From Desulfurococcaceae archaeon (GTDB lineage Archaea; Thermoproteota; Thermoprotei_A; Sulfolobales; Desulfurococcaceae): a stretch of 64,000 nucleotides of DNA. Every line of letters starts with the position of its first letter. The stretch's first letter is position 1. Shown here one piece after another: positions 3,271 through 49,792 of the stretch. Under the pieces are notes generated by a model, which saw only the letters and a list, made by a program, of their open reading frames with translations, was not told the origin of the DNA and did not search any database. The translations under genes were made by a program, and so were the position numbers. The stretch spans positions 32,001-96,000 of the forward strand of contig JAWAJB010000004.1 of assembly GCA_038888155.1 (NCBI GenBank), written 5' to 3'.

Positions 3271-3379
3271 CGCCGGGGGCGGGATTTGAACCCGCGTACC
3301 CCTTTATGGGGTAGTGGGTCTCCCTAAAGATGTCGCTGGAACTCGAGCCCACCCCCTTAGGCCGCTCGGGCACCCCGGC
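3271..3379 (-). tRNA. tRNA-Ser(CGA) with a 22-nt intron (3320..3341)
   Basis: Reverse complement GCCGGGGTGCCCGAGCGGCCTAAGG...GTGGGCTCGAG[intron]ACCCAC, long variable arm, GGTTCAAATCC T-arm. Confidence 0.9.
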
Positions 3380-4488: not shown

Positions 4489-4562
4489 GGGCCCGTAGCT
4501 CAGCCCGGTAGAGCGGCGGGCTTTTAACCCGTAGGTCCCGGGTTCAAATCCCGGCGGGCCCG
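4489..4562 (+). tRNA. tRNA-Lys(TTT)
   Basis: GGGCCCGTAGCTCAGCCCGGTAGAGCGGCGGGCTTTTAACCCGTAGGTCCCGGGTTCAAATCCCGGCGGGCCCG; upstream TTTTTAA TATA-like box. Confidence 0.96.
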
Positions 4563-4641
4563 CACTCCTCTCCATCAAAACTCAAAAGTGTAAGTGACTA
4601 GGCTGAGTCGATTAACTTAAACGAGCTAGAGAACGAATCAA

Positions 4642-31316: not shown

Positions 31317-32024
31317 CTACTTCTTCCTACTAAACCTCGCGTAGATCATGGCATGATCTTTATCATACGGCTCTAGGTGGACTACATCAACTATGTCAAA
31401 CCCCCTCTCTTTCAATGTGTTAATCTCTTTTCTGTAGATCTCGCTTGGCTCTTTAGTGACATCTATGCTCCTCGCCTTAACAGCCATCAATAAGTACCCG
31501 CCGTCCTCGAGAAACGTATCAGCGTTATTTGCTACTATAGCAGCCTGCTCGGGCTGTGCGATATCTGCGTAGAGCCCCTTTACTGTCTCTACAACATGTC
31601 TATACTCTTGTGGTTTCCTAGCGTCTCCTAACACGGGAAACAGGTTTCTCCTAACATCGGCGACAACTATGAATTCCCTCATAACTCTAGGAGCTATATC
31701 TACACCGTATACTCTTCCGTTGTGGCCAACAATATCTGACACGTGGCTAGCTGTAGTGCCCGATGCGACGCCGAGGTAGAGGATTGTGTCTCCCTCCCTA
31801 ATGGGTTGATCTACAAGCCCGTTTAGAAGAGCTGCAGCGAGTTTGCTTCTAAATGCATTCCACTCACGGTATTCGTTGCCGTTATACTTGTAAAGCTTTT
31901 CGCCGTAAACTCTGTGACCTGGTACAAGGTTCTTTGTAGCGAGCTTTACGCTACCGTCATCTAACTCAACGACGTGAACACCAAAGTACTTCTCATGCGG
32001 TTTAATAGATTTAACTAAGCTCAT
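31317..32024 (-). CDS. flpA: Fibrillarin-like rRNA/tRNA 2'-O-methyltransferase
   Basis: VYGE, YR.WN..RSKLAA, LYLG.ASGTT.SHVSD, DIAQP.Q, KARSID, L.PYDKDH. Confidence 0.96.
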   Translation of the reverse strand: MSLVKSIKPHEKYFGVHVVELDDGSVKLATKNLVPGHRVYGEKLYKYNGNEYREWNAFRSKLAAALLNGLVDQPIREGDTILYLGVASGTTASHVSDIVGHNGRVYGVDIAPRVMREFIVVADVRRNLFPVLGDARKPQEYRHVVETVKGLYADIAQPEQAAIVANNADTFLEDGGYLLMAVKARSIDVTKEPSEIYRKEINTLKERGFDIVDVVHLEPYDKDHAMIYARFSRKK

Positions 32025-32049: not shown

Positions 32050-33279
32050 CTATCTCCTCCTTTCTCCTCTCTTTTTCTTTTCTTTTTCAAAGGTTTTAGG
32101 CTTCTCTGGTTTAGGCGGCGGCTTGGGGTAAAGCTTCTTTATTTCATCAACTCTCTCCTCAAACTCCTTGAGCAACTTGTCTCCCACATATCTGCCCGTG
32201 AAGAAGTCAACTTTAGCTGCTATTGCCAACTTAGCTGCCAGGAATCTGGCAACCTTGCCCCTCTGCCACCTCGGGCTTTTGTGTATTGTAGGGTGCTGAA
32301 ATATTATACCATGCTTTGGCGGCTTGCCGCCTGTTTTAAGGGCCCTGAACAAAGCCTTCTCAGCACCAAGAACTTGAATCGTGCTTGCAGGTAGCTTGGC
32401 GAGCTTTTCAAGGCCACCAGCTAAACTAAGTAGTCGCGCCCCGAGCTTTGAGCCCACGAGAGCACATATGTTTGGTGCAACTTCCTTCATTATGGCGTCA
32501 ATGTACGTGTCGAGAGTCTCTCTCAGCTTATAGAGATCTATAATTATACCAGCGAGCATTAGAATGTAGTCAAGGTCGAAGTCGCTCAGCTCAGCGCCTA
32601 TACTGCTCTTAGCTGCTGACGCAATCTTTTCAGCTTCTTCCTCAGATAGGCCAAACCCAACTAAGTTCTCAGTTGAGAACTTTGATCTATCGCGAAACTC
32701 GTACACAATCTTTGCGTATTGCCCGTGGTCCTTCACGAGCTCGTCTAGTTCTGGGAAATGTACACTGTACCATTCTCTTAATCGAGCAACGTATAGGTTT
32801 ATTGTCTTGTCTATGTCATCTATGGCCCTAATAGCTTGAACGGCCAGTAAGTCTCTCTTTTGGGCTTCTCTCCTTAACTTACGCCTCGTGTACTCCAACA
32901 TGATCTCATGTAGCTTCTCAAAGAACTCTTCAGGTGTCTTCGCTAATCCATGCTTCACGGCAAGCTCGGGGAGGGCCCTCCTCAAAATCAACATAGGCGT
33001 TGCGCCAATCGAGATCTCAGGTGTAATGCCGTATGAAGAAGCAGCTCTTGCTGCCCCGTAGTGCTCTGCCACAATTGCAGTTATCCCTCTGTCCTTTAGC
33101 CTAGATACGAGTTTCTCGTGGTAAGGCGTAATGTCGCCTTTTTCAAGGCTGATGAGGAATTCAACGAGCTCGTCTAGTCTGTTTGGGGGTTCGACGAACT
33201 CGAGAACTTCGTTGTTTTCAGATACTGCGAAAATCCCTATTACCGTTTCCACTATATAAGCTCTATTTGATTCAGACAT
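32050..33279 (-). CDS. nop5: Box C/D sRNP scaffold Nop5 (Nop56/58)
   Basis: RLREWYS.HFPEL, APN, PASTIQVLGAEKALF, PPKHG.IFQ, RGK.AR, Lys-rich tail. Confidence 0.96.
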   Translation of the reverse strand: MSESNRAYIVETVIGIFAVSENNEVLEFVEPPNRLDELVEFLISLEKGDITPYHEKLVSRLKDRGITAIVAEHYGAARAASSYGITPEISIGATPMLILRRALPELAVKHGLAKTPEEFFEKLHEIMLEYTRRKLRREAQKRDLLAVQAIRAIDDIDKTINLYVARLREWYSVHFPELDELVKDHGQYAKIVYEFRDRSKFSTENLVGFGLSEEEAEKIASAAKSSIGAELSDFDLDYILMLAGIIIDLYKLRETLDTYIDAIMKEVAPNICALVGSKLGARLLSLAGGLEKLAKLPASTIQVLGAEKALFRALKTGGKPPKHGIIFQHPTIHKSPRWQRGKVARFLAAKLAIAAKVDFFTGRYVGDKLLKEFEERVDEIKKLYPKPPPKPEKPKTFEKEKKKRGERRR

Positions 33280-48440: not shown

Positions 48441-48695
48441 CTAAGGCATAAACAGGCCCGATATTATTAAAACCACCGAGAGCACTAAGATCAACTTAAT
48501 GAACTGCCCTATCGTCAAGTTAGGTATGGCTTTTACTAGGCTCAGTATCACTTTTAGGGCAAGTGCTCCAATCAATATCATTAGCAGTACAAAGCCGCCA
48601 ACAAATAGCCAAAATCCTATACCGTTCACCTTGAATAACAGCTCTGAGAAACCGCTGAGAAACTGGGATATCTTGCTAATTGTGTCTTGATTCAT
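48441..48695 (-). CDS. Small membrane protein
   Basis: 84 aa with two hydrophobic helices; GGTGAG RBS upstream. Confidence 0.6.
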   Translation of the reverse strand: MNQDTISKISQFLSGFSELLFKVNGIGFWLFVGGFVLLMILIGALALKVILSLVKAIPNLTIGQFIKLILVLSVVLIISGLFMP

Positions 48696-48821
48696 ACTTG
48701 TCTCACCATAGATTAACTCAAGTTGGTTAGTTTTAAAGCTCTTGGGTCCCCGCTATAATTTGCTAGATTTAAATTTCATAGGCACTCAAGTATATAATTG
48801 GGATTGAAGAGAACCATTAAA

Positions 48822-48890
48822 CGAAAATGATGAAGGTTAAAAGCGCGGAGCCCGCTTCTAGGGCAATGGCTTGTGCCAGGCTTCTGATGC
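48822..48890 (+). ncRNA. Box C/D guide sRNA predicted to target tRNA-Lys(UUU) U34
   Basis: ATGATGA (C, 48827)-AGGTTAAAAGCG-CGGA (D', 48846)-hairpin GCCC/GGGC-degenerate C'-GTGCCAGGCTT-CTGA (D, 48884); TATATAA at 48791. Confidence 0.75.
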
Positions 48891-48988
48891 TTCTATCATC
48901 AAATCCCCACGCATTGGTTAAGTTGGTAGGAGACATTGACCTAGTGTTTTTAAGCGTTTCTGCATGCATTTCACCAACGGTGTGAAAT

Positions 48989-49672
48989 ATGTGTACAACA
49001 ATAGAAAATGTTGTAGAGTGCCTTGGCAAACCTGTAGTAGATCCATATAACAGGAGATTAGGCTACATTACGAGCTTCTTCAGCGACGTTGATGGAAGGG
49101 TTAAATCCCTAGAGGTTAATTTCCACGACGAAGAGTACAAGGAAGTAGCAATAGATAGATTTAAGATCTCTGCAGAGAGTATTGTTCTAATGCCTGAGTA
49201 TGAACACCGCGCCTTAGTTACTGAAAACAGGCTAAAGCTGATTAAGAGCAGGCTCGCCTCTCTTGAGGAGCTATATTCTAGGAAAGAGGTTCCCTCGCAC
49301 GTATACGAGTCTCTTAAGAAGAGACTTGAAGAAGAGCTGGCAAGCGTTAAGGCATCAGCCCGAGAAGTAAAGGACATCCTTAGATCTAAACTACACGAAA
49401 TAGAAGACCAAATTGCCGAGGTAGAGAGAGCTGCCGCGGCATTGAAAACAAGCTACATTGCTGGTGAGATATCAGAGAAACCCTACCTAACAGTAGCTGA
49501 TATGATGAAGAAGAGCCTTGAGACCTTCCAGAAGGAAAAAGACAACATTAAGAAGCACCTCGACAAAATAGAGTCTCTCGAAGCTCTGCCCATAGGTCCG
49601 GCTATAAGTGCACAACAGATAAAGGGGACAGAAGGTCAACAGGAGCCAATGCAAGTAGTCGTTTTGGGTTAA
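48989..49672 (+). CDS. cdvA: Cell division protein CdvA
   Basis: PRC barrel (GKPV.DPY.R..G), coiled coil (R...LEELY...E.P...Y; Y..GEI....Y), C-terminal PMQVVV ESCRT-III-binding-like strand. Confidence 0.85.
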   Translation: MCTTIENVVECLGKPVVDPYNRRLGYITSFFSDVDGRVKSLEVNFHDEEYKEVAIDRFKISAESIVLMPEYEHRALVTENRLKLIKSRLASLEELYSRKEVPSHVYESLKKRLEEELASVKASAREVKDILRSKLHEIEDQIAEVERAAAALKTSYIAGEISEKPYLTVADMMKKSLETFQKEKDNIKKHLDKIESLEALPIGPAISAQQIKGTEGQQEPMQVVVLG

Positions 49673-49792
49673 AGGACGTTTTTAGCCACGCTGATGTTCA
49701 TCAAAAATTAACTTATTGGAAAAAATATGAAAAGTTTGTCTCGATAACATCTAACTACCTCATTCTATATGTTTAATGTATAGGAAACAGGG

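Follow-up and report, generated by a model that had tools for sequence, protein, structure and literature searches.

A Sac-sR26-family box C/D sRNA whose guides match the wobble position of tRNA-Lys(UUU) and the intron of pre-tRNA-Asn(GUU) in a Desulfurococcaceae archaeon

Main finding

The element at 48827-48887 on the forward strand of the analyzed DNA is a true box C/D sRNA of the Sac-sR26 family, whose D' guide is predicted to direct methylation of U34 of tRNA-Lys(UUU) and whose D guide would pair with the intron of pre-tRNA-Asn(GUU). We assign this reading a probability of about 0.75. The DNA under study (the window) is a stretch of 64,000 nucleotides from a Desulfurococcaceae archaeon (contig JAWAJB010000004.1, positions 32,001 to 96,000), and all coordinates refer to it unless another contig is named.

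Results

Box C/D anatomy of the locus

The whole element, from C box to D box, together with its upstream box, is composed as follows:

48791-48797 (+), TATA-like box TATATAA, about 30 nt 5' of the C box, read from the sequence
48827-48833 (+), C box ATGATGA, of RUGAUGA consensus; its TGATGA is without variation in an alignment of 18 sequences (A1)
48834-48845 (+), D' guide AGGTTAAAAGCG, a 12-nt spacer with its pairing part at 48835-48844
48846-48849 (+), D' box CGGA, non-canonical, with the terminal GA retained
48850-48864 (+), hairpin GCCC-GCTTCTA-GGGC inserted between D' and C', with stem strands 48850-48853 and 48861-48864
48865-48871 (+), degenerate C' box AATGGCT; relatives have A/G-ATG-A/G/C-CA
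48872-48883 (+), D guide TGTGCCAGGCTT, a 12-nt spacer (11 nt if C' is placed one base later)
48884-48887 (+), D box CTGA, without variation in A1

As for archaeal box C/D sRNAs, the C and D boxes are canonical and terminal, and the spacers from C to D' and from C' to D are 12 nt each. With regard to the guide-target criterion (at least 9-10 bp, with a Watson-Crick pair at the fifth base), the D' guide has 10 of 10 pairs and an A:U pair at nucleotide 34, and the D guide has 9 contiguous pairs with the pre-tRNA-Asn intron and a G:C pair at the fifth base. TATATAA is presumably the archaeal promoter of the sRNA; relatives carry a TTTTAAA box about 30 nt 5' of their own C boxes. The C box, the D' box CGGA, the D box, the upstream TATATAA, the hairpin and the degenerate C' had all been located in an earlier note on this DNA and lie where it placed them, and its reading of the locus as a box C/D sRNA is borne out by this anatomy and by conservation from C box to D box. 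None of the C/D families of Rfam matched above its gathering threshold or at permissive thresholds (best sR21, with 17.4 bits against 45 and E = 2). The single-strand fold of the sRNA (MFE -20.9 kcal/mol, z = -0.35) is uninformative, as expected of a guide RNA.

Conservation across the order

The box pattern by itself is not significant; it is conservation that settles the matter and makes the locus more than a chance occurrence. A DNA search of 41 related genomes returned 19 matches (own genome included), each limited to the interval between C box and D box (query positions 44-115, mostly 48-109, which correspond to 48827-48888 of the window). In A1, no variation is seen in TGATGA, GGTTAAAAGCG, the TG of C', CCAGGCT or CTGA, while the flanks, the loop of the hairpin and the D' box differ among sequences. 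From A1, which comprises the window locus and 17 relatives, we derived a covariance model (R1). It matched 141 of the 151 genomes sampled in the order, including 123 of 124 of high quality, and all 13 families, nearly always at one locus per genome, with the qualification that every training sequence carries the guide, so that the model is biased toward guide-bearing loci. The weaker matches taken from all 13 families likewise carry GGTTAAAAGC, one base after a C box (40 of 40).

The D' guide was then read in 82 sRNA sequences from 13 families: it is GGTTAAAAGC in 80 and GGTTGAAAGC in two, a variant that would give a G.U opposite U36, and the base facing nucleotide 34 is A in every sRNA sequence read. 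The D' box lies 12 nt after the C box in all of them. It is CTGA in 15 of 17 genomes of one family (f5) and in three genomes of the same genus (G003, G005 and G013). Elsewhere it is ATGA, GTGA, NTGA, CCGA, CTTA, CGTA, TGTA, CGGA and others, and most same-genus relatives have TGTA or TATA, without the second sheared G.A. Because the 12-nt spacing is constant and some lineages have CTGA, the fifth-base register is secure despite the degenerate CGGA found here. Boxes and guide are thus kept in related genomes, the absence of which the earlier note had named as grounds for giving up its reading.

An exact pattern search at class level gave no match in 26 genomes outside the order. A form with the two guides swapped was found at four of four loci taken from one genus of another class, plus two further families, and its presence outside the order implies that the D' guide is older than the order. 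A phylum-wide pattern, GGTTAAAAGCNNNGA, was noisy, and all 12 loci that it returned automatically were rejected as chance or coding matches. Several other GGTTAAAAGCNNNGA matches were the antisense strand of tRNA-Lys genes.

Catalogued relatives

The supplement of Dennis et al. 2015 (PMC4644070), in its accessible parts, reports three relatives as sequenced small RNAs: Sac-sR26 of S. acidocaldarius (5170 reads), IHOsR154 of I. hospitalis (1360 reads) and TtesR106 of T. tenax (169892 reads). There Sac sR26 is listed as 'NP NP', meaning that neither guide has an rRNA target, and tRNA complementarities are given as 'not compiled' in that paper. Sac-sR26 and IHOsR154 are identical, over the printed stretch, to loci of our collection (L090 in G059 and L113 in G044, respectively); the R1 match in the former genome is G059:C1:1142510-1142563. 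Judged by its sequence, the window sRNA is an orthologue of Sac-sR26 and a new member of a catalogued, expressed family, and it is presumably expressed in the window organism.

The earlier suggestion that the pairing with tRNA-Lys may be undescribed stands in part. No paper naming a box C/D guide for tRNA-Lys U34 was found in the literature searched (the Lowe-lab snoRNA database, a possible source, lay outside the search), but the RNA family itself has been catalogued as expressed.

The D' guide and the wobble uridine of tRNA-Lys(UUU)

The tRNA on which this guide is predicted to act is encoded in the same window:

4489-4563 (+), tRNA-Lys(UUU), called by ARAGORN and Rfam, with the target at 4520-4529 and U34 at 4523

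Positions 48835-48844 are the exact reverse complement of GCTTTTAACC (4520-4529) and pair with G31-C40 of this tRNA. A48841, the fifth base 5' of the D' box, falls opposite U34 (G31 at -2, C32 at -3, U33 at -4 and U34 at -5). Both the exact complementarity to the anticodon loop (10 of 10) and the count to U34 had been claimed from the sequence before, and an independent recount gave the same register. The further claim that tRNA-Lys(CUU) and tRNA-Asn(GUU) mismatch at the wobble base is also correct: both reach 9 of 10, and nucleotide 34 is the sole mismatch. A Watson-Crick pair at the fifth position is essential according to evidence summarised in Lui et al. 2018 (PMC6009581), in the parts accessible, and C34 and G34 tRNAs would therefore not be methylation substrates.

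Both guides were compared with the own genome, namely 66 ARAGORN tRNA calls and the rRNA pieces present in the assembly, which lacks positions 1-562 of the 23S and a part of the 16S on the contig itself. Among these tRNA calls and available rRNA pieces, tRNA-Lys(UUU) is the sole 10/10 match of the D' guide. The guide 10-mer occurs nine times in the 2.42-Mb assembly (both strands) versus about 4.6 expected, and one of these occurrences is in a stable RNA. The estimated chance of an in-register 10-mer match in the roughly 11 kb of scanned tRNA and rRNA is about 0.01 per guide. The target GCTTTTAACC is kept in all 25 tRNA-Lys(UUU) genes from relatives. A second genomic copy of GGTTAAAAGCG (C1:469707) was considered as an sRNA and rejected, as it belongs to an intergenic promoter-like stretch between two tRNA genes.

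The D' guide is thus predicted, with good support, to point to U34 of tRNA-Lys(UUU), and the sRNP would be expected to 2'-O-methylate this uridine. According to Wolff et al. 2020, Um34, s2Um34 and mchm5Um occur in tRNAs of S. acidocaldarius, and orphan ribose methylations remain.

The D guide and the intron of pre-tRNA-Asn(GUU)

The best-supported partner of the D guide is encoded on the window's contig, outside the window:

G000:C4:159522-159620 (-), intron-containing tRNA-Asn(GUU) gene

Within the intron of this pre-tRNA, AGCCUGGCA forms 9 contiguous pairs with the D guide. For 34 genomes of the window organism's family, we compared the sRNA with the tRNA-Asn gene. In 30 of the 34, guide and intron have 8-11 contiguous Watson-Crick pairs, and in 27 they have at least 9. 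All 12 positions of the guide are paired in three genomes (G018, G019 and G041). The exceptions are G156, with a run of 7, and G003, G005 and G013, with a run of 5 and a 1-nt insertion inside the intron target.

The two sides change together. The 24 distinct guide/target combinations have G:C at position -9 in nine cases, A:U in 14 and a mismatch in one; at position -10 they have U:A in eight and C:G in 10. In G156 the otherwise invariant core is altered on both sides, CCGGGCT occurring with AGCCCGG. The variable positions hold 85 Watson-Crick pairs out of 144, versus 60.1 +/- 4.7 when introns were redistributed at random among genomes, and none of 20000 shuffles reached 85, a significance that is inflated by kinship. 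The D guide co-varies with the pre-tRNA-Asn(GUU) intron in its own family, and this partner is better supported than the tRNA-Lys D loop. Binding of the intron in vivo would be expected from these pairings. Both tRNA-Lys genes are intron-less in this family, and the tRNA-Asn intron was absent in all five non-family genomes examined.

The earlier note had proposed that the D guide addresses the D loop of tRNA-Lys, making the sRNA a tRNA-Lys-specific double guide, and had conceded that the fit to the tRNA-Lys of the window is imperfect. The concession is justified: the D loop here is AGCCCGG, with a mismatch beside the supposed target nucleotide, and its longest run with the D guide is 4. The proposal itself does not hold. 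Six D-loop variants occur among 25 tRNA-Lys(UUU) genes from relatives (AGCCAGG in 10, AGCTTGG in five, AGCCTGG in four, AGCTAGG in three, AGCCCGG in two and AGCATGG in one). Since the loop varies and the guide core CCAGGCT is constant, the D guide does not track tRNA-Lys(UUU).

A wider version, which we consider unlikely, is that the D guide serves mature tRNA D loops (AGCCUGGU) and methylates many tRNAs, tRNA-Lys(CUU) among them, on the second C (position 17), the intron match being a by-product of D-arm-like sequence. In the own genome, the guide indeed has 7-9 pairs with the D loops of six tRNAs, namely tRNA-Met (contig C29), Val, Lys(CUU), Ser, His and Thr, and its best partners, with 9 pairs each, are the tRNA-Met D loop, on another contig, and the tRNA-Asn(GUU) intron. 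The D loops of several tRNAs overall give 7-10 pairs, and in genus g8 there are 10 contiguous pairs with the Lys(CUU) D arm. Moreover, a methyl group that is 'most probably 2'-O-methyl' on C or A17 of S. acidocaldarius tRNAs is noted in Wolff et al. 2020, where orphan sites are also said to await guides. However, the guide bases at -9 and -10 change with those of the intron (C or U, then A or G) and do not fit the U20-A21 that is constant in D loops. Compared with a generic D loop, the intron is the better partner in 20 of the 24 distinct combinations, equal in three and worse in one. The core of G156 changed together with its own intron, and the D guide of Sac-sR26 points to U20 rather than 17, so that there is no single conserved D-loop site.

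In a splice-site motif of pre-tRNA-Asn drawn manually, GGCAG of the intron pairs with CUGUU of the anticodon loop, and the D guide target takes in three of the four bases that the intron contributes to the central helix. The D' guide target covers the exon strand of this anticodon-intron helix. In the minimum-energy fold of pre-tRNA-Asn, intron UAGCCUGGC pairs instead with the 5' strand of the anticodon stem. Binding of the sRNP would thus be incompatible with the splice-site structure as well as with the misfold.

Partners of the D guide in other families

Other families have tRNA-Lys genes with introns, and their family-specific D guides match them. At least 8 contiguous pairs between D guide and tRNA-Lys intron were found in 13 of 28 non-family genomes, and at least 9 in nine. 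By family, runs of at least 8 occur in f2 (4/4), f10 (3/3), f9 (2/5, the other three having 7), f13 (3/7) and f7 (1/3). In a cross-family control, 1.6% of 913 guide/intron pairings reach 8. An intron match of the D guide is absent in f3 (0/2), f5 (0/3), f12 (0/1, run of 5) and four of seven f13 genomes.

The isoacceptor differs among lineages. S. acidocaldarius and I. hospitalis have the match in the tRNA-Lys(CUU) intron rather than in that of tRNA-Lys(UUU), and two f9 genomes have an intron common to both Lys isoacceptors. The tRNA-Lys(UUU) introns of S. acidocaldarius, G033, G036, G097, G112, G125 and G132 gave no match with the D guide (runs of 3-4). The f4 genome (G027) has one intron-less Lys gene only, with a D guide run of 7 in the D stem, and GGGCUUUU of tRNA-Lys(UUU) is the partner in one f7 genome, where the D guide would point to C32. 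In terms of base complementarity, the recurring partner of the second guide is the intron of an AAN-box pre-tRNA. The anticodon loop of such a pre-tRNA can also pair with the D' guide, perfectly for UUU and with a mismatch at 34 for CUU and GUU.

Hairpin and C'/D' motif

The hairpin that had been noticed between D' and the degenerate C' is real and is kept in the organism's own family. Its stem is paired in 85% of alignment cells, and its loop is free in length and sequence. Families f1 and f2 have the hairpin, as do parts of f8, f9, f11 and f12; f3, f5, f7, f10 and f13 lack it. Positions 1-3 of D' pair with positions 4-6 of C' in 76% of cells (UGU/ACA, UGG/CCA and CGG/CCG, with exchanges of UA to CG or GC), and the alignment retains the G of C' as well as the last A of D'. 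We infer that, instead of the usual K-loop, the C'/D' region may form a closed motif resembling a K-turn, in which a single sheared G.A is continued by Watson-Crick pairing.

These features bear on an improbable alternative, less probable than the D-loop reading, in which D' no longer methylates and the sRNA with its degenerate C'/D' acts only as an antisense chaperone on AAN-box pre-tRNAs. It would suit the boxes of the own family, where D' is CGGA, TGTA, TATA or CGAA and C' is ATGRCA, and the interpretation in Lui et al. 2018 (PMC6009581, accessible parts) of conserved Pyrobaculum pairings with a fifth-position mismatch as binding without methylation. It does not suit the base facing nucleotide 34, which is always A and fits U34 only, nor the retention of the same guide in lineages with canonical CTGA D' boxes. 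The covariation of D' 1-3 with C' 4-6 and the kept G of C' and A of D' also suggest that a structured motif is maintained.

Given the degenerate D' (CGGA) and C' of the window copy, and the TGTA or TATA of relatives that lack the second sheared G.A, L7Ae binding and D'-guided activity are not assured.

Neighbourhood and transcripts

Two genes for protein partners and the genes flanking the sRNA were identified in the window:

31329-32006 (-), fibrillarin, PF01269, 334 bits
32146-32823 (-), Nop5, PF01798, 257 bits
47104-48420, enolase, upstream of the sRNA
upstream of the sRNA, on the opposite strand, a small membrane-like ORF
48989-49672, CdvA, downstream of the sRNA, PF18822, 122 bits

The sRNA lies directly upstream of cdvA in the window's genus, and in S. 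acidocaldarius (G059) the two share a strand, as they do in the window, with the sRNA 68 nt upstream. No linkage to cdvA was observed in G028, G070, G111 and G044, that is, in four of the five other families checked. Conservation upstream of cdvA, as the earlier note had envisaged, therefore extends to the genus and to S. acidocaldarius, and not to these four genomes.

Ten public runs hold parts of the window, one of them RNA. Metatranscriptome contigs from a random-primed library cover 48980-49700, with the sRNA outside, and such contigs cannot show starts or absence; the contig identical to the window starts at 48980, nine bases before the cdvA ATG. Two DNA runs represent a strain of 95-99% identity, with differences at 48750-48785, 48926 and 48936 and none within 48786-48925. 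A scan for bacterial-type promoters and terminators gave one sigma-70-like match versus 0.7 expected, which is irrelevant for an archaeon.

A reading without an RNA gene, in which the element would belong to the 5' leader of cdvA or open a small ORF of 52 aa (48827-48985), is very improbable. In its favour, an ATG-started ORF does begin at the C box, and cdvA follows the element in S. acidocaldarius as well as here. Against it, the D box marks the end of conservation, length changes of the hairpin loop are not multiples of three, four of five other families checked have no cdvA adjacency, and orthologues have been sequenced as discrete small RNAs.

Discussion

Proposed mechanism

In the reading that we prefer, this orthologue of Sac-sR26, about 65-70 nt long, would form an sRNP with L7Ae, Nop5 and fibrillarin. 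The D' guide would form a 10-bp duplex with G31-C40 of tRNA-Lys(UUU), placing U34 opposite the fifth guide base, and fibrillarin would 2'-O-methylate the wobble U34, probably within a hypermodified xm5(s2)Um. By the mismatch at nucleotide 34, tRNA-Lys(CUU) and tRNA-Asn(GUU) would be excluded as substrates. The D guide would not serve tRNA-Lys here. It would pair with the pre-tRNA-Asn(GUU) intron, overlapping the intron strand of the anticodon-intron (splice-site) helix, and the D' guide could also cover the exon strand of the same helix, with a mismatch at G34. This second engagement, with a near-cognate pre-tRNA, would probably be non-methylating or intron-directed. On pre-tRNA-Asn, the sRNP could possibly act as a chaperone, order events before splicing, or methylate an intron cytidine that is of no consequence for the mature tRNA.

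A more general model may be put forward tentatively, although we hold it to be somewhat less probable than its opposite. Introns would be read by the second guide, and it and the D' guide would jointly hold the two strands of the anticodon-intron helix in near-cognate AAN-box pre-tRNAs, namely Asn(GUU) in the own family and Lys(CUU) or both Lys isoacceptors elsewhere. The mismatch at 34 would make this engagement a non-methylating chaperone function or a means of pre-splicing ordering. Many orphan second guides of tRNA-directed archaeal sRNAs might likewise partner introns, having been missed as searches used mature tRNAs. As far as our searches show, no description of a second guide that co-evolves with near-cognate pre-tRNA introns is found in the literature searched.

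The wobble U of tRNA-Lys(UUU) decides how cleanly AAA/AAG are set apart from the Asn codons AAU/AAC. A guide RNA for ribose methylation of U34, near-invariant across a thermophilic archaeal order, would name the long-sought agent for one site. The co-evolution of the D guide with introns suggests that C/D RNPs engage pre-tRNAs before splicing, for purposes beyond mature-tRNA methylation, and pre-tRNA introns are a concrete place to seek partners of many orphan guides. The U34 prediction is directly testable in S. acidocaldarius, in which Sac-sR26 is expressed and genetics exist.

Comparison with known systems

Like Sac-sR26, IHOsR154 and TtesR106, the window sRNA carries guide GGTTAAAAGC beside its D' or D box, and like Sac-sR26 it lies immediately upstream of cdvA. 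Unlike these three, the window copy has a D'-C' hairpin and a non-canonical D' (CGGA) and C'. The D guide core also differs, being CCAGGCT in the window, CTCTACCT in Sac-sR26 and GCCAAGC in IHOsR154. In TtesR106 the order of the guides is reversed, with GACCAGGCTGG following the C box and GGTTAAAAGCG preceding the D box.

The sR-tMet of Haloferax volcanii, which Joardar and colleagues are said to have described in 2011, is reportedly a wobble guide for C34 of elongator tRNA-Met, with an intron-containing precursor and an unconventional C'/D' motif. This haloarchaeal motif is said to bind L7Ae nonetheless. The window sRNA resembles it in having a wobble guide on an intron-containing precursor and an unusual C'/D', and differs from it in the substrate, which is elongator tRNA-Met C34 in H. 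volcanii. We know of no separate intron-only guide for sR-tMet.

Other wobble-uridine guides are also comparable. An S. acidocaldarius sRNA is aimed at U34 and G18 of tRNA-Gln(UUG), and Um34 has been observed there (Ziesche et al. 2004, as cited in the accessible parts of Wolff et al. 2020). That sRNA, like the one in the window, combines a wobble-U guide with a second guide for another tRNA part; however, both of its guides are on one mature tRNA, whereas the second guide of the window sRNA follows the intron of a near-cognate pre-tRNA. In Pyrobaculum, sR27 is directed to tRNA-Gln U34 and sR46 to tRNA-Thr U34 and U12 (Lui et al. 2018, PMC6009581), and as single-tRNA wobble-U guides they are like the window sRNA. 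The accessible parts of that catalogue contain no Lys U34 guide, no 'U34 K' and no GUUAAAAGC. About 80% of the Pyrobaculum tRNA-directed sRNAs have a second guide without a predicted target in the same source, where targets were sought among mature tRNAs only, so that intron targets could not appear there.

The intron of pre-tRNA-Trp, reported to be a box C/D guide (Clouet d'Orval et al. 2001), shares with the window sRNA the use of C/D chemistry at position 34 and an intron-containing precursor. In pre-tRNA-Trp the intron is itself the guide, whereas for the window sRNA the intron would be the target of a guide encoded elsewhere.

Genomic neighbourhood of the sRNA

The sRNA gene is immediately followed on the same strand by cdvA (window 48989-49672(+)). 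In S. acidocaldarius (G059:C1:1141831-1142563), cdvA likewise lies directly 3' of the sRNA on the same strand, with a gap of 68 nt; in the genomes G028, G070, G111 and G044 the two genes are not linked. In same-genus relatives, a T-rich box just 3' of the D box resembles a TATA box for cdvA. A 741-nt metatranscriptome contig from run X5 covers window 48980-49700 with zero differences, and its 5' end falls 9 nt ahead of the cdvA ATG. Such a contig would fit a cdvA mRNA with a short leader, driven by the TTTTTAA box at 48948-48954, although contigs are no proof of a start.

On the other side of the sRNA, GTTTTAAAG occurs at window 48732-48740, about 95 nt upstream of the C box, and a second TATA-like box (48791-48797) lies closer to the gene. 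Relatives keep GTTTTAAAG about 35 nt upstream of their own C box. The window copy may serve the divergent small ORF at 48441-48695(-).

In box C/D RNPs, fibrillarin is the enzyme and Nop5 the scaffold. Their genes adjoin each other about 16 kb away from the sRNA:

window 31329-32006, (-), fibrillarin (PF01269, 334 bits)
window 32146-32823, (-), Nop5 (PF01798, 257 bits)

Assembly composition and other tRNA genes

The source assembly comprises 2.42 Mb in 134 contigs, while relatives in the family have 0.9-1.9 Mb. 16S is present twice, as a complete gene on C31 and a partial one on C4, and there are duplicated tRNA species, which sit on small contigs. The assembly is probably a mixture of two organisms. 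Contig C4 carries the sRNA, tRNA-Lys(UUU) and tRNA-Asn, all three. Two further tRNA genes, both intron-containing, were recorded:

window 3271-3379, (-), tRNA-Ser(CGA) (Rfam in the window; identity from the whole-genome run)
G000:C1:469742-469872, outside the window, (-), tRNA-Trp

The former is the fourth tRNA in the window by Rfam and was missed by ARAGORN in the window run. The tRNA-Trp intron bears box C/D-like motifs, including GGATGATA, and corresponds to the classic intron-encoded guide. The intergenic GCGCTTTTAACCC beside this gene is a promoter-like chance copy of the tRNA-Lys(UUU) anticodon-loop target.

Variant guides in relatives

Three genomes forming one sub-lineage of the same genus (G003, G005 and G013) have the canonical CTGA as D' box, and their sRNAs are without the GCCC hairpin. 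Their tRNA-Asn intron contains one additional base, reading AGCCGTGG or AGCCATGG, which immediately follows the nucleotide where methylation would fall; the flanks of the intron target still co-vary with the guide.

In family f7, the D guide of one sRNA (L109, genome G030), TAAAAAAGCCCT, pairs with GGGCTTTT of tRNA-Lys(UUU) (L180). Its fifth base would face C32, and both guides of this RNA would then act on a single anticodon loop. The box C/D sRNAs L278-L281, L287 and L291, which come from other classes of the phylum, have the guide to the tRNA-Lys(UUU) anticodon loop ahead of the D box, not D'. The D' guide of four of them includes CCAGGCTGG; these four carry both guides of the window sRNA with their order swapped.
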